A DNA stretch of 64,000 nucleotides from Callorhinchus milii (taxonomy: Eukaryota), in contig NW_024704742.1 of assembly GCF_018977255.1 (NCBI RefSeq), positions 119,352,001 to 119,416,000 of the forward strand, given 5' to 3'. The translations under genes and the position numbers were made by a program. Positions 2,230 to 62,460 of the stretch are shown in pieces. Positions within the stretch are counted from its first letter, which is position 1, and each line of letters opens with the position of its first letter. The notes under the pieces were generated by a model. The model was not told where the DNA came from. It did no database searches and saw only the letters and a list, made by a program, of their open reading frames with translations.

Positions 2230-3680
2230 CCAAGCAGGACACAGTCAGCCAGTCTCTCTTCTTCAGGCTCTGTCCCACTCCCCCTCAAAACCGCTACCAT
2301 CACTCCCCTCCTCAAAAAACCCACCCTTGATCCCTCTTACCTTACAAACTATCAACCCATTTCTAACTTTCTTTTCCTTGCTAAAGTTCTGGAACCACTG
2401 TTGCAAACCAACTTGGCTTCACTCCGTACTCGAGCCCCTCCAATCGGGTTTCCGCCCTGCCCACAGCAGAGAGATGGCACTTGTGACGCCCTCTCTGTCT
2501 GTGACTAGGGCTCCCTCTCCAGGCCTCCTTGTCCTCCTGGACCCGTCCACTGCATTTGATGCAGTCGATCATGTCGTCCTCCTCCACTATCTGTCATCCC
2601 TCATCCAGCTCAGTGGAAACACACTCTCCTGGTTTGAGTCCCACCTAACCAACCACCATCACTGCTAGTGGCTTTTACTCCCTCCCCACCTGGTCACCTG
2701 TGGCGTACCCCAAGGCTCCATCCTTCTGCCTTTTCCTTATTTACCAATATCATCCAGAGTCAACTTGTAAATGTATGCAGATGACATTCAAATCTACTTC
2801 TGCTTTACCTGCAACTCTATGTCAGCTGATGTCCTGTCAGCTTGCTTGTCAGAAGTGCAATTGAATGCTGACAAGACGGAAGCCATACGCCTTGGCTCCC
2901 GCCAATGTTTTCTCTCCTGTGGCTCTGACCTCCTCAACCTCAACCCCCTCAACCTCCCCAGCCTATCCCTCAGACTTACCAAACCTGTGCTTAACCTAGG
3001 GATCAGGTTCATTCTACAGCTGTCCTTCCTACCCGTTCCCTGACCAGGACAGCTTTCCTCTATCTTTGTCACATTACCTGCCTCTGACCATACCTCAATT
3101 GCTATGCAGCCGAAGCCCTCATCCATGCTTTTGTCACGTCCTGCCTCGATTATTCCAATGCCCTCCTCGCTGATCTCCCCAGCTCCACTATACACAAAAT
3201 TAAATTAATCCAAACTCTGCCACCAGGAATCTCACTCGCATCAAACTCCGTACCCCCATCACATCACGCCTTGTCTTCCACTGGCTCCTGATTACAGATC
3301 GACTTCAAGATCCTCATATTCATCTACAAATCGCTTCATGCCCTGACACCTCCCTGCTCTCCAACCTGCTTACTCTCCACTCCATTACCCGCCATCTCTG
3401 CTTGACTGACTACAGCCTCCTGCTTATCCTTTGTCCCCTCCGCTCCACCATTGGTGGCCATCCTTTCAGCCACTAGGCCCTGGAACTTTGAAAATCTCCA
3501 TCTCAATCCCTTCACGTTGTATCTCCTTTCCCATTTTCAGATCATGCCTGATGACCTTCCTCTTCAACCGTGCCTATGGTCACTTCCTTCCCGGCTTGGT
3601 GTCAGGCTCTGCCACTTTTAAGGGTTCTGAGACGCTACCCTTGTGAAGGGCGCTATAGAAATGCAAGTTGTTTTTGTTGC
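2230..3680 (+). mobile_element. L2 LINE, 5'-truncated, with decayed RT
   Basis: Translates to [32 protein letters not shown] and MYADDIQIY (non-LTR RT motifs) with frameshifts. Ends gtgaagggcgctatagaaatgcaagttgtttttgttg. Confidence 0.92.
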
Positions 3681-5135: not shown

Positions 5136-6759
5136 TCCTTATATGTGATATAGTGCTTTTATTGTCAGGAAAATCTCTCAAAGCACTTCACGGGATTCAC
5201 TGTAAAAATGGAGCGACTGTAGGCAAACACAGCAGCACAATTGCACACAGCAATATCCAATTTTTGTCTATGTAAATGATGCCTTCTAGGGCTCGGAGAT
5301 TGGTAACCCAAAAATATAAGCAGATCTAATTTTCCTTGTAAACTTACACTGTACTCCAGCAATTAAATGCATTATTCTATCAGCATTCCAAAGAAAAGTG
5401 AACAGTGCTGGCCTCTTAGCCTGGATAAGAAGTGTACTGATTGCTACTGCATCAGAAGATACACTCATAAAAGCAAGTGAATCCACTCATTATAGCACAA
5501 CAAAATTGCAACACCACTTTTATTGATCTGCAACTCCGTCCTTCAACGATAATACATTTTCTCGTAATTTATGGTTCGTGAAGAAAGCCTCTTGGATCCC
5601 AAGTCATTTCCTTGTGTTTAAGGTTAATCCAACAAGCAATGAACTTTGGCATTGGAAACAAAGGAATGTTTTATCAAAGTCATTTTTTTTGTTGGGTCAG
5701 GACGTAAACTTTGGCTTAATTGATGTTATGATACCACTTTGATGATATGACTTATTAGACATATGCTTTTGAACTTTCTTTTTATCCTGTGCCAAAACAC
5801 ACATTTTGTCACTTAATAGAAAATAAAAAAAAGACACCAAAAGTGAGAGTTGGAGCCAGTTATGTGCCTTTAGTAAACACTGGAATCTACAGCAAAGTCA
5901 CACCAAGGCAATCATGCACAAATCAGGACCTGGATGTGCAGTATAAAGGCAATATCTTTAACATTTTGGTCATTATTACATATGTTACACATCTTAGTCA
6001 ACCAAAAACATATCCAAGACCTCTGAGCTCCTACATTTATTTGTACTAAAGCAGCTGATTTTATCAAGCTCTAGCTCTAGCTGTTGATAACTGACCTAAA
6101 AATAGGGTTTGGCAGATTTATTGATCAAAGTTAAGTATATGCTTGGAAAATGTTTTCTTTTCTAAAGGCACTGTAGGTTGCAGGATGCTTTACCCAGTGG
6201 GGGCTTTGGAGGCTGAGGGAGTTTCCTCCGATGTGAGTGACCTTGTCAGGCCTGGTCACAGCAGCTCCTCTAGAGAACCAACTGCAAAGCCCTGAGTGCA
6301 GCCCTGGTGAGACAGAGGCCTCAACTCGAGTTAAGAGACTTCAGAAGATTTCTCCCTGAGTATTGGAGACTCCAGCCACAGCACCATTCAGTTACTTCAA
6401 ATAAATAATAATAACAATCCTTACATTTCATAAAACAACTTTATTATATTATCAGGAATTCCACCTTGTTGGTGTCTCAGTCCGTCTCTTGTTGCAGGTG
6501 AAACATTGTCAAAATGAATGTGTCTAACGCTACCCATAGTGGCCATTGAGAAGGGAGTTTCTCCCAGTGTCCTTGCCAACAATCACCTGGATAAAAAAAT
6601 TATCAATCATTCATTTTCATAACAGAAGTCGAGAACACAGCCAGCAATTTTCTTTGCTTGAGGCAAAGTTCGACAAACGTTCGGAAAACCAAACACCAAC
6701 CTCAGGACAGTCTTTGCTGGTATTTAGTATTGCATTTTTTACCCAATTTGGCTTGTGCC

Positions 6760-6912
6760 AGTCTGTGCCTAATACTCTCTAGAATTAGGTAAGTAGGATG
6801 CATCCCTCACAATCCATGGGAATTTCCATGTGTTGTGGGAGATGTGTGGAATTTAGTTTGATTTGGATACTCTTAAACATAGTGATGGGTTTCTGCAATT
6901 GCAGTCACCTGG
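6760..6912 (+). mobile_element. Family X dispersed repeat, 3' fragment
   Basis: tgtgcctaatactctctagaattaggtaag...tttggatactcttaaacatagtgatgggtttctg matches the copy at 19270-19937. Confidence 0.7.
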
Positions 6913-7999
6913 TGACAAATTTATTTTTAATGGATCCCACTATTTCACAAGCATTTATGCCAAAGATGGTTTGTTAATTATGTGTTTTAAATCCCAAGCA
7001 AACAGCCTCAGTGACTATTTTCTCTATCATCATTGCTTTTTTTAACATAATATTGTAATGTCTTATTATATTAATATTACATTTATCTTAAAACATAAAA
7101 CTTGACTTTTACACTGGCAGCATGTCCAGCCAAACAATCCTCTGGGAGCTCAATAAAGGACAGATAAATATTGCTGGGGGTTTATATGTATTTATATAAA
7201 ATGTATATAAATATATATATATATGATATACATTTTTTATATTAGGAAGTTAATTCACATTTCCTCTCACAGTGCCAATTTAGCAGATTATTATCTAATT
7301 AGCATTTTCCACAACACTACATGTAAATGAAACAGTGTTAGATGTACTTAAAGTGCAAAATTTATTTCCAGAGAAAGAATCTACTCAGGATCTGGTCGAT
7401 AGCTTTGTCGAGTTAACAGCAACATTAGTCTTAAGGTCATATTTCCATTTGAACACTGGAGTGGTGTCTCATTCTAAGGAGGCAACACCTTTATTAACTG
7501 AATGCTTCTATTCAACGTTAACTGGTATAATTTTGGTGACAACAATTACTTTTCCTATTTGAAATAATCCCATTAAAGAATCCTGTGTTTCGCCTTCAAG
7601 ACCCCAGTAGTGAAGAGTGTGAAGTATTAGTAATGAATTTGCATGTGCTAACAGTAAAAAGCAGCTGGGTGTTAAAATATTTTAACTGCTTAAATCTATG
7701 CTTATAATATAAACACAGGAAATCATAAAAAATAGAAAATGGGGATTTTGAGACACACTAATTGGGAAGGAATGTAAAGTTGATTTAGAGATGGCGTAGA
7801 AAAAGGAGAAGGGAAGTCAAATGAGTTTACGCAGCTGCTGATATCAAAGATGGTGATAATAAATAATTTCTATTGAATGGACATTTGAAATGACTTCTAT
7901 TTCCTTTATGTTTTCTCAGCGGCAACCTAAATATATTACCGGTAAAGAAATGAATGGCTCTGTTCCTTAGAATTGGGCATAAGTCCCATTTTTAAAAAA

Positions 8000-40809: not shown

Positions 40810-42530
40810 ATCCCTCTCCCCACCGCCACCAAATCCATCTCCATCTCCTACTGCCCTGGAAAAAAATCTCCCCGCAATCCTTCTACGCTGCCCTGGAGTC
40901 ATCTGAACTCCTCCCGCTCTGGCCTTTCACCGGCACTGATTTATCCTCCTCACTCACTCTCCTCCACAACTCCATCTCCACCACTCTTGATGCCCTTGCC
41001 CCACGCACCTCCCAAACTGTCTCCTACTCATGAACCCCACCTTGGTGCACCAGCCACCTCCTCTCCCTCAAGGGTCAGGTGTGGGCCACTGAACATACCT
41101 GGCTCAAGTCTGATCTAACAGTCCACTGGCAGATCTGGCTGGATCACATCAAAACAGGCTGCTCCGCCCTAGCCTCTGCCAAATCATCCTTCTACTTCAA
41201 GATAACCTTGGAGGCAAAGGACAACCCCAGGCTCCTATTCTCCTCCACCAACTGGCTCCTCGATTCACCCTCACACTCCTCGCCCATTCTCTCCTCAAGC
41301 TCTGACTGTGAGGAGATGCTGGATTTCCTCGAGTCCAAAATCGAGTGGATCCAATCAGCTGCCACTGTTTCTCCATCTCCTCCCCACACTCAGACCCTAT
41401 TCATTCCTGCCTCCACATTTTCGAACTTGTCTCCCCCTCCTCTCTCATCACTACCGTATCCAGCATAAAACACACCACCTGCTCCTTCAACCCCATCCCC
41501 ACCCCTCTCTTTACCTCCCAGCTCCACCTCCTCGCCCCTCTATTCCAACACCATCAATTCTCTCCCTATTGGCACTGTTCCGATTCCCCTCAAAACAGCT
41601 ATAGTCACCCCCATCCTGAAAAAACCTTCCCTGGTACCAGCCTTGCTTTCTAACTACCAGCCCATCTCCAACCTCTCTTTTCTTTCCAAGGTCCTTGAAA
41701 GAGTTGTTGCCTCCTAGCTTCGCTCATTCCTCTCCTACCATTCCCTTCACGAGCCCTTCCAATCCAGTTTCCGTGCTGCTCTGGTCAAGTTGACAAACAA
41801 CATCCTATCATCTGTAATCAGGGCTCTCTCTGCCTCCTTGTCTTCCTCAGCATCTCTGCTGCCTTCAATACCATGGACCATTCCATTCTCCTCTACCTCC
41901 TCTCCTCTCACCGCAACCTTCAAGGTTCTGTCCTTGAATGACTCAGGCCTTATCTCTCACATGGTCTACAATTTGTCTCCGCCAGTGGTTTCTCTTTCAG
42001 CCCCTGCACAGTCTTGTGTGGTGTTTTTCAGGGCTCTGTCCTCATTCCCCGCCTCTTCAACATGCAACCTTGGTGACATCATCCGCAGACATGGGGTCAA
42101 CTTCCACATGTACGTGGATGACACCCAACTCTATCTCCAGAGCCAACTTTCTACAGCTGAATGTCAGCAAGACTGAGGCTCTCCTGATTCACTCCCACCA
42201 GCACCTCTGCACCTCAGGCACTGGCAGCCTCAGCATCCATGGATGACACTGCAGATTACCAAGCCAGTCAGGAACCTAGGAGTCTTGATCAACCCTCAAC
42301 TGTCCTTTCTCCCCATATCCATACCATGACCCTCTCTGCTTCCCCCACCTCCGCAACATTGTCCTACTCCGCCACTGTCTTACCCCTCAGGCCACCGAAA
42401 CCCTCATGCATGCATTCGTCACCTCAAGGCTCGACTACGGAAACTCCCTTCTTGTTGGCCTCTCCAACTCTTCCCTCAACAAGCTGCAAATCATCCAGAA
42501 CTCTGCAGCTTGTGTTCTCTCCCGCACTGA
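40810..42530 (+). mobile_element. L2 LINE fragment (EN-RT linker plus RT), truncated at both ends
   Basis: [31 protein letters not shown] and [17 protein letters not shown]. Homologous to 59814-62460. Stops abruptly at ~42530. Confidence 0.92.
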
Positions 42531-43100
42531 TTCACCCTGCCGGGAATCAAACCCGGGTCTCTCGCTTGCTAGGTGAGTGCTCTAACCACGGAGCTACAGG
42601 AGTACCCCAACTAGGGGTCTCCAATACTTGGCTCTCGCCAACCTGTGCTTAATACCATTCCAGAATTAGCTTCTTCCCACTCAGCTCCTGTTAACCCTAC
42701 AAAGTCCTTGTAGGCAAGGGGTTCCTATCTGCAGAAAACTTGCCAGACAATTGCAAGCTATACAGTTTTAGCTGGTTAGACTCCAGTAGAATCCCAACAC
42801 GTGGGGTTTGAACCCACAACCTTCAGACTCAGAGACGTGCTACTACTGAGCCAGGCTGACACAAAGAGCATTGATAAAGTCAGAATTCCAGATTTCTACC
42901 ACCCTTTGAGTGAAAAAATGCTTCCTGATTTCACTCTTAAATGGCCTGGTTCTAATTTTAAGACTATGACCCCTTGTGTTGGAACATAATCCAATGAACG
43001 TTCCCCAAGCCTTGGTTCTCGCCAACCTGTGCCTTATATTCTCCAAATTAGGTAAGCAGGATGTGTCCCTCTAGAAAGAGAGTGCACACTCCATTCCAGA
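42530..43100. other. Mosaic of short repeat fragments, including two locally duplicated segments
   Basis: 42799-42882 resembles 39674-39760 including its non-SINE flank. 42882-43003 matches 44217-44338 with 3 mismatches in 122 bp. A SINE head and family X pieces are interleaved. Confidence 0.8.
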
Positions 43101-48415: not shown

Positions 48416-48551
48416 AGCAGCAGGTGGCAAATGGACCAATCATTTTCGGCCCGCCACAGTCCCACCCCCATTTTCCGCAAACAATGAACCCCTAAACTAT
48501 ACACCAAAAAGTAATACAGTAAGGAACAGCCCACCCCTCGCCAGCCAGAGT
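48416..48551 (+). repeat. Left terminal inverted repeat
   Basis: agcagcaggtggcaaatggaccaatcattttcggcccgccacagtccc...ccgcaaacaatgaacccctaaactatacaccaaaaagtaatacagt aligns by hand at roughly 80% with the reverse complement of 53084-53191. A further ~30 bp aligns after a short indel. Confidence 0.9.
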
Positions 48552-48603: not shown

Positions 48604-48912
48604 ATGAACACTCAGTTAGAGATACAGTTTGACGATGTATATACCATCACGATGTGTAGACAATGCAACCATTGTGTCTGGATCAGGCTTGGTAGCACAG
48701 AGACCTGTGGTAAGAACTGTGTTAATGAATATTATTATTATTGTGCAGTACACGCTCAGCGAATTCGAAGAGGCGGAGGGACCTTTGCTTGTGTGAGGTG
48801 TGGGAAGAGCGTAAAGGTACGTTACTCCGTATGCGTGTCCTGCGGTGCTCAGGCCCTCCGCTCATGCCTTAAGCGGCAGAGACAAACTGATCTGCGCAAC
48901 AAATTTCTATGA
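48604..48912 (+). CDS. Small Cys-rich Zn-finger/Zn-ribbon protein of the viral element (102 aa, open frame)
   Basis: CRQC, CGKNC, CAVH, CVRCGK and CVSCG motifs followed by a basic tail. First gene inside the left TIR. Confidence 0.55.
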   Translation: MNTQLEIQFDDVYTITMCRQCNHCVWIRLGSTETCGKNCVNEYYYYCAVHAQRIRRGGGTFACVRCGKSVKVRYSVCVSCGAQALRSCLKRQRQTDLRNKFL

Positions 48913-48990
48913 CTCGCAACTATAGAGATGTAAATATTTGCCCAAACGCTCATTTGAAGATTTGCTCAGAAAAGTACGTAACCATAAAAC

Positions 48991-49932
48991 ATGGATGACC
49001 TTATTGATGAGATACTAGCGGAGTTTGAACCTGCACCACTGCAGGCACAGTTTATCGACCTGGACACACAGGTCCCTTCCCCTGTGAGGCTTCCAGCCGA
49101 CAAGCGGTGGATTGAGGTTCTATCTGATGCCAAAGACGCCTTTGCAGTCTTCTCTACCTGGAGAGTAGAAGGAGAGGACCCATTTGACATCGGTGACGTG
49201 AATGTTGCCCCTAGTATTAAGCTCAGAGCTGGCCGTATTGCTTTGGATGCCCGAATGGCGGACAAAAGAGCCACAGCTATCTTGCGCGTCTTACCAGAAG
49301 GTATACTCCGAATTAAGTTCCTCTGCAAGCGTGACAAAAAAACTGGACTGTGGAAGACAAGATTGACCCAGTACGAATAGAACGGCGAAGGGGCCAAGAG
49401 GTTGTCACGAAGGAGACTTCCCCTGGGTTCCTTTTAGGTATTGACGACGTCTACTACAAAAACGCATATCCGGTTATGGCTGTGGTGTATGATCTCTAGC
49501 CCCTCAGGAATGCTGACCCAGCCAACCTGGCCCCACTAAGAGACGGTGACCTCAATTGTGTGGCCTGGAGAGTGGTTGAGCACTTCGAAGGCATCCAGAG
49601 GACCGGGTCTTACCCAAGCACGCTGCCAAAACATTGTACGCTAGGAAGAACGAGTCCATCTACAATAATGGTAAATAGAGGGGGGTGGCAATGGATTTTG
49701 AAAGCCCATAGAGCTCATCATCCACAATGGCCATGCTTGGCCCAAGGACTTGCACTTCCCCTCCTCAAGACAGGTTCAGACATACAAAGGCAAAGTCTGG
49801 GAGGCTATCCAGGAACCCACACAAGGTCAACCGATTGCAGTCTGACTGTTGGGTTCTGGGAACAAGCAGCTAACAGTTGACCAATTTGTGCTCCAAGATG
49901 GTCGCATCTGTATTACCAAGGAAAAGCATGAG
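48991..49932 (+). pseudogene. N-terminal part (terminal-protein region plus OTU-like protease) of a putative protein-primed family B DNA polymerase; catalytic core absent
   Basis: 129-codon ORF, then frameshifted continuation ...LAPLRDGDLNCVAWRVVEHFEG...GLTQARCQNIVR*EERVH...IELIIHNGHAWPKDLHFP...LTVDQFVLQDGR. The DxxC (Cys 49557-49559) and HxxH (His 49732-49734) spacing resembles an OTU dyad. Family assignment is from memory, and no polymerase motif is present in the window. Confidence 0.6.
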
Positions 49933-50390
49933 GGTGTCGTTAAGTCCGGGTGCCCTTTCACTGATGAGTAAGGAGCTGAACTTTCAGTTGTCTGTGCCAT
50001 AAAGGACATACCTTTAGGGTGGTATGGCTGGTCAATCGTATAATATCTGCTGTTTGTCCAGTAATTGTAGACAACACCCAGACCTTCATTCTTGCTTTAT
50101 TTTGTATGCCAGTCAGTATCGGGGGAAACCACAAACTCTGTACAAACATGTTCATAGGCCTGCCTATCATATGCATTGTCAAAGGCACTCCAAGAACTAT
50201 CCTGTGGAAGAGTACACTGTATCTCAATGAATATTCTCTGAATCTGATACATGTGAAATACATGTGAAACAGAAAGACCGAGCTATTTGGGACATCTCCA
50301 GCCTGGAGCTGATCTTTCGTGGAAACTCCACATTTGTATTTGTGCTGCAGTTAACACCCCACCAGTAAGCAAATCAGAGGGGTGAACATC
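49933..50390 (+). pseudogene. Possible C-terminal remnant of a double-jelly-roll major capsid protein
   Basis: Heavily frameshifted pieces (SLMSKELNFQLS, KDIPLGW, GKPQTLY, NYPVEEY, KTELFGTSP/LELIFRG) loosely follow the order of Polinton MCP C-terminal motifs. Lies directly upstream of the minor-capsid-like gene. Confidence 0.33.
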
Positions 50391-50449: not shown

Positions 50450-50905
50450 ATGTAAGTAACATTAACCAACATCCAAGATGGAGAGGCAATCACCCTCCAA
50501 GAGTATATCAACAACCACAATGGGTCGTTTTGGGCTGGCCTCTGCTCGGTCGCTTATTGGGTCGGGTGGTACAACATTCTAGCCGGTGAAACCTTCCAAT
50601 AGCTTGCAACAGGGGAGACAACCAACATGCTCCACATAAATCCAGGACTCTACAATTTCAGCATGCTCGAACAACAACAACAAGATTACATTTGTATAGC
50701 GCCTTCCACGTCAGGAGGATGTGCTGGAAGAGCTTTTTACTAGTGGACTTTCTTGCCTGGTGCTTGTAGTCAGTAAAGCTAATGGAATCATAAATATGAC
50801 AATCCCGCCCGGCTATCAAGTACAAATTAGCCCCAGCCTACGGACATTCCTAGGCTTAGACAACGCAGGCTGACTCTCCGCAGGAAATTATGCAGGGGAA
50901 TTATG
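50450..50905 (+). pseudogene. Minor capsid (penton-like) protein pseudogene, 3'-truncated
   Basis: One frame reads M*VTLTNIQDGEAITLQEYINNHNGSFWAGLCSVAYWVGWYNI...INPGLYNFSMLE. After removing a 50-bp L2 insert and one TSD copy it continues ELFTSG...VSKANGIINMTIP...SLRTFLGL. The WYNI / IxPGxY / LGx pattern is typical of Polinton and PLV minor capsid proteins (from memory). Confidence 0.65.
50672..50721 (-). mobile_element. 50-bp L2 3'-tail insertion with an 8-bp TSD inside the minor capsid gene
   Basis: caacaacaacaagattacatttgtatagcgccttccacgtcaggaggatg is flanked by tgctcgaa (50664-50671) and tgctggaa (50722-50729). Confidence 0.85.
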
Positions 50906-50993: not shown

Positions 50994-51666
50994 CTATTTT
51001 GATTCGCTGCCATTGAAGAGCGAGCTCCCACCCAACTTCTTGAGAATTTCTGCATGAGCTTCGTCTCGTTTTTTTTTTTCTCCTCATCTATTTTTTATGG
51101 TAGACTGGGTTTTGTACGCTTTCTTCTGGATGTCTACTTTCATTTGGCTATGCTTCTCGGCCACGTCGAGGATCAGTTGAAACTCTTCCACAGAAATGTG
51201 TCCATCTTTGAGTGCCTGGGAGATGATTGTACACACTGATTGTATTCAGCTTAGATTCAGCAAGGACGCGAATGTCGTCATGTTTTGTGGCTTTTACTAT
51301 GAGTCGTCGGTTCCCAAACTTACTGGCGATCCTAGCAAACCTGCATACCAGGACGGCTGCTTCTAGAGCTACTGCTACTGGGGCAGCGATAATAATAGAG
51401 AAGATCCCCACTCCACATGCACCCATTCCCAGGCTAGTGGTGATAAGAGTTGCATCAATGCCTTCTAGCATGTTTATGGCTTGGCAATACTTTTTGTATA
51501 GTGCGCTGAGGCTGTCCCGTTCTCGATTGAGCTTGTTCCGCAGGTTAGTAATTTTTTTCATGTGAAATGTATAATCTTTTTCTGTGCTTTCAAGCACAGC
51601 ATATAGAGGTGGGGCTGATGGCACTGCAACTTCTTGTCCGACCTTCATTGTATGGTCCACTGTCAT
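50994..51666 (-). pseudogene. Polinton/adintovirus-type hydrophobic helical (membrane-active) protein, frameshifted near 51230
   Basis: Coiled coil (KKITNLRNKLNRERDSLSALYKKY), then a Gly/Ala-rich hydrophobic hairpin (LGMGACGVGIFSIIIAAPVAVALE), then KHDDIRVLAESKLNTIS. After a frameshift it continues IISQALKDGHISVEEFQLILDVAEKHSQMK. I recall this pattern from animal Polintons. Confidence 0.72.
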
Positions 51667-51672
51667 ATTTCT

Positions 51673-52195
51673 TTAATTAACCGTTACAGTAGGCCATTCT
51701 CTGCTCATGGTGGTGATTTTTGCTTCTTTAGTCCAGCCATTGGGCAAGGTATTTTCATTAAAGTATGCGACCAGCTGCCACTCATCTCCATCTTTTTCAG
51801 TTGCTGTTACAATCCGATCGGTCGGCAGCCACCTTTCATTACTTATGCCAATAGTTTTTACAGCTGTAGACAATACAACCATGTTCTCATCAATACCAGC
51901 ATTTAGTACTACGCCTCGGTTGAGGTGGATATTGAATGTGTTGTAAATGTGTGATAAATAGACGCTGCACCTTCGACACTCTCTTATCTTCTCTTTTGTG
52001 GAGGAGTTTTGCTTTCTGAATGAATGGCCGTAGTTGGTCTCGGGATGGTTGTGGAGTATCATATTCCCATACATAGATGTCAGCACACTCGTTTTCTTGT
52101 TTGTATAGTTGCCAAAATTTACTCGTGTCCTTAATATTGTTTTGCCGAAGATATAAGCCAATGGTATAGCCCATTATCCGGTCGAGTTCTTCCAT
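51673..52195 (-). pseudogene. XkdW-like (fibre-associated) protein, one probable frameshift near 51930
   Basis: IYVWEYDTPQPSRDQL resembles the I..W....PQPT..EL motif of phage XkdW-like proteins. Lies directly downstream of the fibre gene, and two overlapping ORFs (51890-52195, 51673-52161) join. Confidence 0.45.
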
Positions 52196-52208
52196 TCTAA
52201 CTAATATA

Positions 52209-52923
52209 TTATGTTTTTTCTAATAGGGTTATGCAGTAATTGGTATGGTTCTGTTATGGGTGAGCATATTTACACCTGTGCAGGTAAATACATGGAAGGA
52301 AGGCCAATTGCTGGCGAACACGGGACATTGCACATTAAATCATTCACCTGCCCCCCCTTTCTAGCTGTATGCCCCCAACGATAATCTTTCCGTTCCAAAG
52401 CGCTTTTCCGGAGGGAAATGCGGTAAGTGTAACGTCTATACCCGTGGTGGTTGGAAGCATCCCTGTAATTAAGTTGAAGTTCCAGCAACTTGTATCCAGA
52501 TAGTTTTTGGTGGCTACGTCCTGTGCAGATGTGGGATCTCACACGACAGTAATGAGCTGATCCGACAAGAGAATTGCAACAGAGACGGCCGCAGAGGCGT
52601 GTGTTGTGATTCCGGAGGTGCTGTGAGTGTTAAACCATTCGGCAAGGAAAGAGATTCGCTATGGATCCAATCCCCTGATGTGATCTTTGTTCCAGAAATA
52701 AGCATCGCTGTAGTGTCCAAGTAGTTTTTAGTGGCTGAATCCTGGTCGTTGTGGGGTTGGCCAAGGCTGTAATCTTCTGGGAGCCCATATTAAGTGGCCC
52801 GCTCATGGTGTCGCCTATTTTTGCGACTTTTAAACTGACCTGTGTGTCGATGGCATATGTTCTTTTGGCATAGTCACCAAGGTCAACAACTCCCGGGGTA
52901 CTTTCTGGGCCGTAAATGCTCAT
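52209..52923 (-). pseudogene. Viral fibre protein with phage tail-fibre/YadA-stalk-like repeats, frameshifted
   Basis: KIGDTMSGPLNMGSQKITALANPTT/QDSATKNYLD and a second repeat DQLITVV*DPTSAQDVATKNYLD. Confidence 0.75.
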
Positions 52924-52984
52924 TATTTATTTGTTTGTTTGTTTGTTTGTTTGTTGGTTGGTTGGTTGATTGATTGATTGATTG
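52924..52984. repeat. Compound tetranucleotide microsatellite (TTTA/TTTG/TTGG/TTGA) just upstream of the fibre ATG
   Basis: tatttatttgtttgtttgtttgtttgttgttggttggttggttgattgattgattgattg. Confidence 0.9.
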
Positions 52985-53042: not shown

Positions 53043-53191
53043 AGTTTGGCCGGGGAGGTGTGGGAAGTCCCTCCGTGCTCTCGACTGTATTATTTTTTGG
53101 TGCATAGTTTTGCGATTCATTGTTTGCGGGAAAGTGGGTGGGGACTGAGACGGACCAGAAAATGACAGGTCCATTCACACCCCCTGCTGCT
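53043..53191 (-). repeat. Right terminal inverted repeat
   Basis: actgtattattttttggtgcatagttttgcgattcattgtttgcggg...gaaaatgacaggtccattcacacccctgctgct is the reverse complement of the left TIR. Confidence 0.9.
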
Positions 53192-59813: not shown

Positions 59814-62460
59814 ACAACAACAACAACAACAACAAGATTTCATTTATAGAGCGCCTTTCACGTCGGGGGGACGTCCCAAGGCGCTGGACAGTTGGGTCAG
59901 GACCCGAGCAGGGGGGATATGGTCAGGGTGAGGGGAGGGAAGGAAGGGAGTGAGGAAGGGGTAGAGAGTCGAGAGGGGAGCTGAAGGCACGGTTGAAGAG
60001 AAAGGTCTTGAGACCGGCCTTGAAGGAGGAAAAGGAGGAAGCAAGGCGAAGGCACTGGGGGATGGAGTTTCCAGAGCCTCGGGGCTGAGAGGCTGAAGGC
60101 CCGGCCACCGATGGTAGGACGGTTAGGGCGGGGGATGTGGAGCAGAACGGAGCCAGAGGAATGGAGTGTACGGGCAGGTAAGTAGGGGGATAGTAGGTTG
60201 GAGAGGTAGGAGGGAGCAAGGCTGTGAATGGCCTTGTAGGTGAGGATGAGGATCTTGAATTCGATCCTCGGGGGGATGGGGAGCCAGTGGAGGCGAGCGA
60301 GGGTGGGAGTGATGTGGTTCCGAAGCCTGGTGCGGGACAGTACACGAGCTGCAGAGTTCTGAATGACCTGCAGCTTGTGGAGGGAGGTGCGGGAAGGCCG
60401 GCGAGGAGAGAGTTCCCATAGTCCAGCCTTGAGGTGATAAAGGCGTGGACCAGAGTTTCAGCAGCGTGAGGGGTGAGGTAGTGCCGTAGTCTGGCGATAT
60501 TCCGGAGGTGATGGAAGGCGGTGCCAGTTGTGGTGCGGATGTGAGGGAGAAAGGACAGCTCAGGGTCGAACAGAACCCCGAGATTCCTGACTGTCTTTGA
60601 GAGGTGGAGAGTGCAGCCTTGGATGCTGATGCTGTCAGCGCCTGAGGTGCGGAGGCGCTGACGTGAGCCAATCAGGAGGGCCTCAGTTTTGCGCACATTA
60701 AGCTGAAGAAAGTTGTCTCTCGTCCAGGACTCGATGTCAGACAGGAAGGCTGTCAGGAAATCGGTGGTCGTGGAGTTGAGGGTAGAGGAGGAGAGGTAGA
60801 GCTGGATGTCATCCGCATACATGTGGAAGTTAACCCCATGTCTGCGGATGATGTCACCAAGGGGGAGCATATAGAGGGTGAAGAGGAGGGGACCGAGGAC
60901 AGAGCCCTGAGGGAAGCCGCACGAGACAGTGTGGGGACTGGAGGAAAAGCCGTTTGTGGAAACAAAATGAAGACGGTGGGAAAGGTAGGATCTAAACCAC
61001 TCAAGGACAGGGCCTTGAAGGTTGAGGTGGGAGGACAAGCGGTGGAGGAGGATAGCGTGGTCGACCGTATCGAATGCTGCCGATAGGTCGAGGAGGACGA
61101 GGAGGCAGAGGGAGCCCTGGTCGCAGATGGTCAAGATGTCATTGGTGACCTTGACCAGGGCAGTTTCTGTGCTATGGGCAGCACGGAAACCCGACTGAAG
61201 GGGTTCGAATAATGAATGGGTGGAGAGGAAAGAGCGCAGCTGGGAGGCGACAACTCTTTCAAGGACCTTGGACAGGAAGGGGAGGTTGGAGATGGGCCGG
61301 TAGCTTGATAGCTGCGACGCATCAAGGGAGGGTTTTTCAAAGTGGGAGTGATGGTGGCAGTTTTTAGGGGAATGGGAACAGAGCCAGAATAGAGGGACAG
61401 GTTGATGATGTCTGTGAGAAGTGGGGTAAGGAGGTGGAGCTCAGAGATAAGGAGTGGAGTGGGGATAGGGTCAAGGGAGCAGGTGGTGGGTTTCAGGGAC
61501 AGGATGAGTTTGGTGACAGAGGGTGGGGAAACGGGTTCGAAGGTGTGTAGGGGAGGAATGGGTAGGAGTCGGAGTGTGGGAGGGAAGGGGTGGGGGTGGG
61601 TGGAAGTTGGAGGGGGAGTGACCGCGGAGCGGATTCCCTTGATTTTGGATTCAAGGAAATCCAGCATCTCCTCGCAGTGAAGGTTTGAGGAGATGATCTG
61701 CGCGGGGTGGCGGGGGGGACGGAGGAGTCGGGATGTGGTGGAGAACAGAAGCCTGGGGTTGTTCTTCGCCTCCAGGATTATCCTGGAGTAGAAGGACGAC
61801 TTGGTCGAGGCTAGAGTGGAGCGGTAGATTTTGAGGAGGTCCAGCCAGATTTGTCGGTGGACCGTTAGGCCAGATTTGAGGCAGGTGCGTTCAGCGGCCC
61901 GCACCTGGCTCTTCAGTGAGCAGAGGTGGGTGGTGAACCAGGGGGAGGAGCCAGAGTAGGAGACAGTAAGGGAGATGATGGGGGCAAGAGTGTCGAGTGT
62001 GGAGGAGAGGGTCTTGTGGAGGAGGGTGAGAGCACAAGACAGGTCAGTGAGGGTTGAAGGCCAGAGGGAGAGGAGTTCAGAGGACCCAAGGCAGTGGCTA
62101 GGGATTGTGGGGTTAACTTCTTCCAGGGGCGGTAGAAGATGGTGGTGGGTCTGGTGGAGGTGGGTGGGGGGGGTGGTGGAGGTGGTGAAGGAGATGAAGT
62201 GGTGGTCGGAGATGGCCTTGTCGGTAATGGTGACATCCGAGACACTGAGGCCCCAGGTGATCACCAAATTGAGTGGGTGGCCCTGACTGTGAGTGGCGGA
62301 GTTGATGTGGAGGGAGAGGTTGAGCGAGGAGAGCAGGGAGGAGAAGTCCAAGAAGATGGAGCAGGAGGGGGTGAAGTGCAGGTTGAAGTCGCCCAGGATG
62401 ATGAGGCAATCAGAGCAGAGGCAGAGAGTTATTAGTAGGGTAGAAATATCGGAAATGAAG
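59814..62460 (-). mobile_element. L2 LINE, ~2.65 kb, 5'-truncated: C-terminal APE endonuclease plus RT with few frameshifts
   Basis: IILGDFNLH, HSQGHPLNLVIT and ISDHHFISF (APE); [23 protein letters not shown] and MYADDIQLY (RT); (caa)n tail at 59814-59834. Confidence 0.97.

Follow-up and report, generated by a model that had tools for sequence, protein, structure and literature searches.

Putative ESCRT late domains in the tail of a SLATT-like Polinton protein, traced from a fossil gene copy in Callorhinchus milii

We analysed a 64,000-nucleotide stretch of Callorhinchus milii DNA, hereafter the window, together with the relatives of one gene within it. The gene belongs to a family of SLATT-like membrane proteins whose N-terminal tails carry ALIX-type and TSG101-type motifs far more often than shuffled tails of the same composition. 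Judging from these sequences, recruitment of the ESCRT machinery by the family tail is highly probable. We give about an even chance to the fuller reading, in which the window motif is the remnant late-domain tail of a SLATT-like Polinton/adintovirus accessory membrane protein of ~200–230 amino acids used for exit. The late-domain claim concerns the family and not the window locus, because the window copy is a decayed fossil.

The motif gene and its relic element

Residues 16–25 of the open reading frame starting at 51666 read PSAPPLYAVL in translation (51592–51621, minus strand), exactly as the original prediction had described. PSAP and PPLY are intact in this copy, while the position of the YPxL motif reads YAVL and gives no match. 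Two in-frame ATGs, at 51666 and 51648, lie 5' of the motif, both with A at −3, and a third, at 51561, falls within the conserved core helix. The concern that the true start codon might lie downstream of the motif does not hold, because both plausible ATGs are upstream of it and the next is inside the core. The window frame follows the relatives up to residue 141 and changes near 51244, so that the gene is frameshifted. The gene and its surroundings contain the following features.

48443..48520: inverted repeat, left arm, near the relic end (81% complementary to the right arm)
48604..48930, plus strand: Cys-rich ORF of zinc-ribbon-like type whose match is a small ORF in Polinton locus L022 (E 2e-12); Pfam Zn_ribbon_3 E 0.0036, below cut-off
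49977..50258, minus strand: fragment of a conserved ~420-aa Polinton gene, family F6 (48% identity, E 6e-23)
50450..50900, plus strand: broken homologue of family F11 with stop codons, labelled minor capsid/penton from its position; no Pfam match
51090..51245, minus strand: C-terminal helices of the motif gene, in a different frame past the frameshift (hhalign probability 98%)
51244..51567, minus strand: conserved core, residues 34–141, with a long helix, a basic flank, a ~40-residue hydrophobic hairpin and a second basic flank
51568..51666, minus strand: N-terminal tail, residues 1–33, variable in length and sequence among relatives and predicted to be disordered in a long-linker relative
51592..51621, minus strand: PSAPPLYAVL, with intact PSAP, an incidental PPxY and the site of (L/I/V)YPx(L/I) in relatives (translation and family comparison)
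51673..52219, minus strand: unassigned stretches of ORF separating the fiber fragment from the motif gene, which may be the distal part of the fiber (weak XkdW match, E 0.011)
52517..52926, minus strand: broken fiber-like gene, family F1 (L015 member: Pfam Phage_T7_tail E 1e-11), upstream of the motif gene and on the same strand
53084..53161: inverted repeat, right arm

Two inverted arms of 78 nt, 81% complementary to each other, enclose the decayed 4.7-kb Polinton/adintovirus segment in which the motif gene sits. Comparison of this segment by tblastn with the ORFs of at least 80 aa from relatives' loci of at least 3 kb revealed five matching parts: the small Cys-rich gene, the piece of the ~420-aa gene, the penton-position gene, the motif gene and the fiber-like gene. 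The PolB, integrase, ATPase and major capsid ORFs of these loci gave no tblastn match in the relic at E<1e-3, and the window element is an internally deleted relic. The proposed Polinton origin of the motif gene is borne out by the matches of the relic segments to ORFs of Polinton loci and by the presence of relatives in Polinton-type elements. The block of fiber and motif genes (51087–52926) is opposite in strand to the penton-position gene; in L004, L006, L010 and L015 all three share one strand, and the opposed strands in the window reflect either an inversion or a different layout.

Contigs from three sequencing runs of one study cover the motif, and no difference is listed among them. The frameshift is bridged without a gap in contigs of two of the three runs, a weak argument against assembly error because those runs may include the window's own source. 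Five allelic differences were found in the first part of the motif gene, four of which alter a residue; this small number fits neutral decay. A run guessed to be RNA hardly covers the motif gene, which has no bearing on expression. Frameshifted, stripped of its YPxL match and enclosed in an internally deleted element, the window copy is a dead fossil.

Several further observations were made in and around the relic. A piece of about 50 bp from a very high-copy host repeat lies inside the penton-position gene (50670–50722; summed depth ~300,000 over three runs). A 129-aa ORF at 48991–49380 has no Pfam match, and its start codon differs in one sequencing run. Fragments of host LINE-type reverse-transcriptase elements, judged by eye, occupy 41938–42652 and 59923–61667. 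The downstream frame of the window (51245–51090, minus strand) and 55 of the 75 relatives in the family alignment share a loop of the DGxISxxEF type, resembling the latter part of an EF-hand; Ca2+ binding by this loop is doubtful, because the first acidic ligands are absent.

Family context and architecture of the protein

The window protein has 17 relatives at 38–50% identity among 46 candidates. A profile search extended the family to 3,291 clusters at 50% identity, with the best 150 of the 3,291 listed, and a metagenome scan yielded 80 loci carrying relatives. Look-ups of the clusters yielded no names. A search from the core of a distant member added one further protein only; the IMG/VR scans contained no relative, and the phage collection no match. 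The long loci bearing relatives are Polintons, with pPolB, rve integrase, A32 ATPase and double-jelly-roll capsid (L015, L004, L022, L025, L026). The motif-family gene lies directly 3' of the fiber-like gene, near the contig end, in 12 of the 16 mapped loci and within two different capsid modules, and it is found in a third layout with a long PolB in L039 and L040. It is an accessory gene common to different capsid modules. A quick tree, in which 58 of 100 inner branches were open and the window copy had no placement, was not used for ancestry. In the ESM Atlas, the window piece scored below 0.9, and the relative P0184 scored 0.94 to a cluster that is 58% viral, commonest in Preplasmiviricota and possibly its own family, a lead only.

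Other genes of these loci were also inspected. L039 (1–8505) and L040 (1–10748) carry the long PolB (1,040 aa in L039), two tandem paralogues of family F24 as well as a protease-like ORF, and none of the ORFs scanned matched an integrase or capsid family in Pfam; L040 has in addition three tandem ORFs of 272–274 aa, one of which matches Exo_endo_phos. Proteins with hydrophobic ends, identified by eye, are encoded in L015 at 2024–2449, 2705–3043, 5462–6787 and 6761–7996 (families F21, F26, F15 and F6; also in L004, L006 and L010), and the occurrence of several such proteins in an L015-type element hints at a membrane-associated virion or exit step. Two named adintovirus genes were considered as identities for the motif family and rejected. 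GasderminX was set aside because in L022 a different ORF bears pX (family F4, Adeno_PX E 0.0023); neither Gasdermin nor Adeno_PX matched the window query or appeared in the 25 listed of the 51 Pfam families found for relatives. Cupiennin was set aside as a name, the gene between penton and hexon (F9) being another ORF; these name assignments follow from position. In the available text of PMC8502044, GasderminX and Cupiennin are likewise predicted membrane-active accessory genes of the same viruses, but they are separate genes.

Analysis of the AlphaFold2 model of the relative P0140, built with 75 sequences, indicated an all-helical protein (pLDDT 93), in which the hairpin is long and the two helices at the C terminus are shorter. 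Across the 75 sequences, the hairpin tip of about 41 residues contains a mean of 0.13 Lys and Arg residues, and its flanks contain 5.5 and 5.25 per 17 aa. The turn of the hairpin spans about 9 aa free of charged residues, and in the model the two helices are separated by a break of 2–3 residues. The original description of a coiled coil with a hydrophobic hairpin holds, with a ~40-residue uncharged hairpin, basic flanks and an all-helical model. Basic flanks on both sides of the hairpin fit a cytosolic location of both ends of the protein, and neither a signal peptide nor a lumenal loop is evident. The tail of P0141, a relative with a long linker, has pLDDT values of 54–62 with no peak at the motif at 10-residue resolution, and from the models the tail that carries the two motifs is predicted to be disordered and cytosolic. 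The tail of P0140, which has a short linker, reaches pLDDT 81–87, which counts against disorder and allows packing onto the protein's own helices. A four-copy complex prediction scored 0.01, which is evidence neither way.

The layout is of the SLATT type, with a two-helix hydrophobic hairpin followed by a helical region. Pfam SLATT_5 matched one of the 75 members over 138 residues (E 3.4e-6, 27.0 bits versus a cut-off of 29.5), and NCBIfam SLATT_1 matched two (best E 0.0026); no member among the 75 exceeded the cut-off of a curated SLATT profile. Because the best SLATT_5 match falls just under its cut-off, we call the family SLATT-like and not a member of SLATT. In BFVD, nine of the 50 listed matches are to proteins of large DNA viruses that bear SLATT names, with weak E values of 0.017–0.15, and helical bundles match easily. 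The best structural matches to the P0140 model are uncharacterised proteins of invertebrate iridoviruses (A0A5B8RH66, A0A068QKD3 and S6DF61; E 5e-9 to 1e-7, 25–27% identity), likely true homologues; these matches suggest gene sharing between Polintons and iridoviruses. The sequence search of the PDB returned nothing significant (best E 0.11), and Foldseek against the PDB returned nothing at E<=0.001. The VIA-align matches were generic helical bundles, BAR domains and dynein stalks among them, and their Z values, at most 12.3, are of the size that common arrangements reach. Weak matches to Chlamydia inclusion-membrane proteins (IncM in 3 of 75, best E 3e-6; TC0500 in 4 of 75) probably reflect a shared design of hairpin plus coiled coil. 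Weak matches below threshold were also seen to the RTX N-terminal domain (14 of 75) and to alpha-xenorhabdolysin or NheB hairpins.

Late-domain motifs in the tail

To compare the tails, 28 of the best 150 of 3,291 representatives were dropped for an uncovered core start and 20 for a tail shorter than 10 aa, leaving 102 diverse tails. YPxL occurs in 70 of them, YPx[LI] in 80, P[ST]AP in 37, either YPx[LI] or P[ST]AP in 83, and PPxY in 6. In 1,000 composition-preserving shuffles per tail, the mean numbers of matching tails were 1.2 for YPxL, 0.7 for P[ST]AP and 2.2 for PPxY, with maxima of 6, 4 and 9, respectively, and the cores of the same representatives contain no YPxL and a single P[ST]AP. 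Thus P[ST]AP and YPx[LI] are kept in an otherwise variable tail at frequencies far above the shuffles, which supports the late-domain reading of the motif at the level of the family. PPxY, at 6 of 102 against a shuffle mean of 2.2 and maximum of 9, is not clearly above chance, and this part of the proposed conservation failed in the alignment. The sequences indicate that the family signature is PTAP/PSAP plus YPxL, with the ALIX-type YPx[L/I] as the dominant motif.

Circularity controls were applied because the search profile had included the tail. With a motif-free profile, 63 representatives stood above the list cut-off, of which 53 carry the ALIX-type motif, 26 P[ST]AP and 5 PPxY, compared with shuffle means of 1.2, 0.55 and 1.7. 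A query with the core only gave 628 matches; among the 120 listed, 117 have tails, with YPxL in 113, P[ST]AP in 67, [PA][ST]AP in 108 and PPxY in 9, a set that is 72–100% identical to the query and counts as one clade. In the 32 tails with both motifs, YPxL comes first in 19 and PSAP in 13, the reverse of the main order in the search profile. Other ORFs of the same loci, some of them shadow frames, have neither motif in their first 45 aa (0 of 152). Among the 122 representatives with a covered core start, 39 have either a tail shorter than 10 aa (20) or neither motif (19); some of these short or motif-less tails may be truncated gene calls.

Inspection of individual positions indicated that motif substitutions follow the ligand rules of the TSG101 and ALIX classes. 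The first residue of [ST]AP is T in 26 and S in 25 of 51 cases, and S or T stands at 53 of the 66 xAP sites. Of 85 YP sites, 81 are preceded by L, I or V and 78 have L or I at YP+3. Between 8 and 48 residues separate YP from the core, and from the alignments this variable spacing and the free order are the behaviour of short linear motifs. The tails are 13% proline. The available text of PMC4880917 states the three late-domain classes with their partners and reports that ASAP binds Tsg101, and that of PMC3346829 describes YPx[L/I] as the PalA/ALIX motif.

The overlapping form in the window had suggested a more specific model, in which a selected PSAP/PPxY overlap recruits TSG101 and NEDD4. The comparison drawn by the original prediction was with the overlapping PTAPPEY of Ebola VP40. 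Besides PSAPPLY in the window itself, P0140 has an intact PSAPPLYPxL, so the arrangement does exist in an intact protein together with an intact YPxL, and in P0144 and P0185 a PPxY follows P[ST]AP apart from their YPxL. The P[ST]APPxY overlap is nevertheless present in only 4 of 102 diverse relatives and in none of 117 close-clade relatives, and from the sequences it usually arises where the stretch separating PSAP from LYP is reduced to a single proline. Because PPxY is not conserved, the Ebola-like overlap is mostly incidental; as a family trait it is largely refuted by these counts, and its selection as a joint TSG101 and NEDD4 site is scarcely credible.

A candidate exit route and the competing explanations

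The mechanism that we propose begins with the modelled protein, in which a variable N-terminal tail precedes the long helical hairpin, with its ~40-residue uncharged tip and basic flanks, and the C-terminal helices. The hairpin would be embedded in a membrane, its two ends facing the cytosol, for which the charge pattern argues strongly. The tail would then very probably bind ALIX through (L/I/V)YPx(L/I) and TSG101 through P(S/T)AP, bringing ESCRT-III to that membrane. Given this recruitment, the chance is even or slightly better that the protein connects completed, non-enveloped capsids with ESCRT budding, either at the plasma membrane or at multivesicular bodies, in the manner of bluetongue NS3, so that virions would exit without lysis, inside host membrane. 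Taken on its own, use of the tail for non-lytic, NS3-like exit is an evenly balanced proposition by analogy, and membrane-wrapped release of a Polinton-type virus is plausible on the same grounds.

According to the available parts of PMC7409164 and PMC6949946, bluetongue NS3 carries PSAP and PPRY near its N terminus, along with polybasic motifs, two TM segments and a predicted coiled coil; it links capsids to budding and serves non-lytic exit. The family resembles it in design, with N-terminal late domains (cytosolic in NS3), a coiled coil, basic motifs and a hairpin of the two-TM type. It differs in having P(S/T)AP plus YPx(L/I), a tight uncharged turn and a dsDNA virus as its source, whereas NS3 has PSAP plus PPRY and a 21-aa glycosylated lumenal loop; NS3 does not appear among the listed Pfam or BFVD matches. 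HIV-1 p6 (PTAP and LYPXnL), as far as the partial sources go, has the same pair of TSG101-type and ALIX-type ligands in a disordered tail, but Gag is the capsid polyprotein itself. The same ligand pair occurs in Toxoplasma GRA14, which is a parasite vacuole protein (PMC10159163, available part), and tiger frog virus, an iridovirus, buds through ESCRT (PMC4880917, available part). Against the exit reading, the motifs are not universal, with 39 of 122 representatives short-tailed or motif-less and P[ST]AP in about a third only, and no capsid-binding site was identified in the family protein. Should Polintons assemble in the nucleus, as adenoviruses do, cytosolic budding would need an earlier nuclear exit. 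It also counts against the exit reading that the list of vertebrate Maverick core genes in the available text of PMC8097293 does not include the motif-family gene.

ESCRT might instead be recruited for purposes other than virion exit, by a pore or membrane-damaging effector that sorts or sheds itself, thereby timing lysis or limiting toxicity, or by an adaptor that sends host membrane proteins to multivesicular bodies. The motif evidence serves this explanation equally well, as do the sub-threshold RTX and alpha-xenorhabdolysin/NheB hairpin matches; SLATT domains are described as putative pores in the available parts of PMC12220804 and bioRxiv 10.64898/2026.10.13.758929, and GRA14 puts the same motif pair to a non-egress use (PMC10159163, available part). 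We consider it unlikely, since 12 of the 16 mapped loci, across two capsid modules, have the gene beside a virion fiber gene, and since a tail with two independent ESCRT adaptors is what budding proteins show, HIV-1 p6 among them (partial source). A related but distinctly less likely explanation places the hairpin protein in the inner nuclear membrane or the ER, where it would move nuclear-assembled capsids out via ALIX and ESCRT-III like the nuclear egress proteins of herpesviruses (nuclear-envelope exit: PMC10159163, available part). It draws on the better conservation of the ALIX-type motif (80 versus 37 of 102) and on the lack of an evident signal peptide or lumenal loop in the family protein. 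A TSG101 motif points, on the contrary, to ESCRT-I at the plasma membrane or endosomes.

The motifs might also not be ESCRT ligands. YPx[LI] is compatible with the tyrosine sorting signal YxxPhi, read by AP adaptors, or could dock on the protein's own helices, as the high tail pLDDT of P0140 would allow, and PxAP could be a by-product of a proline-rich tail or an SH3 ligand. This is improbable given that composition-preserving shuffles yield about one match, that YxxPhi needs neither a near-invariant Pro nor an aliphatic residue before Tyr, that the alternation of S and T is specific (53 of 66 xAP sites), and that motif order and spacing are free, with no docking in the long-linker model at 10-residue resolution. 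We think it very improbable that the protein travels in the virion and perforates the endosome at entry, as has been hypothesized in print for SLATT proteins of Polinton-like viruses (PMC12220804, available part), with ESCRT used during entry, even with the gene adjoining a fiber gene. An integral hairpin is hard to fit into a lipid-free capsid, and a tail inside the endosome would presumably miss cytosolic ESCRT before insertion.

SLATT genes are labelled in adintovirus-related genomes by Starrett 2021 (PMC8502044), and in the available texts they are read as endosomal-escape pores in Polinton-like viruses (PMC12220804), interpreted as genes for lysis or abortive infection (bioRxiv 10.64898/2026.10.13.758929), or mentioned just by name (bioRxiv 10.1101/2025.10.09.676808 and 10.64898/2026.06.19.733378). 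The SLATT genes of adintoviruses, Polinton-like viruses and large DNA viruses share with our family the two-helix hydrophobic hairpin, the helical C-terminus and Polinton-class genomes (PMC8502044, PMC12220804, available parts). The published accounts, as far as available, propose entry pores, lysis or abortive infection and leave late-domain tails unmentioned, and the Starrett 2021 label 'SLATT' may refer to our family. A term search for 'ESCRT' gave no occurrence in the available texts of these five papers. In the literature searched, mostly the main texts of open-access papers, no report of late domains for SLATT genes of Polintons or Polinton-like viruses was found, and Polinton appeared with ESCRT only as single mentions in reviews on other subjects, with none in adintovirus or polintovirus papers among the matches listed. 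Term searches of the available texts found none of 'membrane', 'SLATT', 'egress' and 'envelope' in PMC11161782, PMC11131425 and PMC11296320, and neither 'membrane' nor 'envelope' in PMC8097293. The last source, in its available part, records that particles of vertebrate Mavericks/Polintons were unobserved as of 2021 and that the conditions of virion formation were unknown then.

We tentatively propose, at somewhat less than even odds, a broader generalization for the exit reading. Many animal Polintons and adintoviruses would carry a mobile, dedicated, ESCRT-recruiting SLATT-like exit protein. Having acquired late domains for ALIX and TSG101, this protein would pass from one capsid module to another, have homologues in invertebrate iridoviruses and give capsids a membrane-cloaked, non-lytic exit. 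The window copy is a fossil pointer to this family only. A tail with conserved ALIX-type and TSG101-type motifs, in a membrane protein encoded beside the fiber gene, offers a specific and cheap handle on how Polintons leave cells and cross between hosts, and it recasts viral SLATT-like genes, hitherto read as pores, as possible ESCRT adaptors. If true, this would be the first exit mechanism proposed for the Polinton group in the literature searched, and the unseen Polinton particles would have to be sought in extracellular-vesicle fractions. The family thus suggests a route by which "non-enveloped" animal viruses may leave cells wrapped in membrane.
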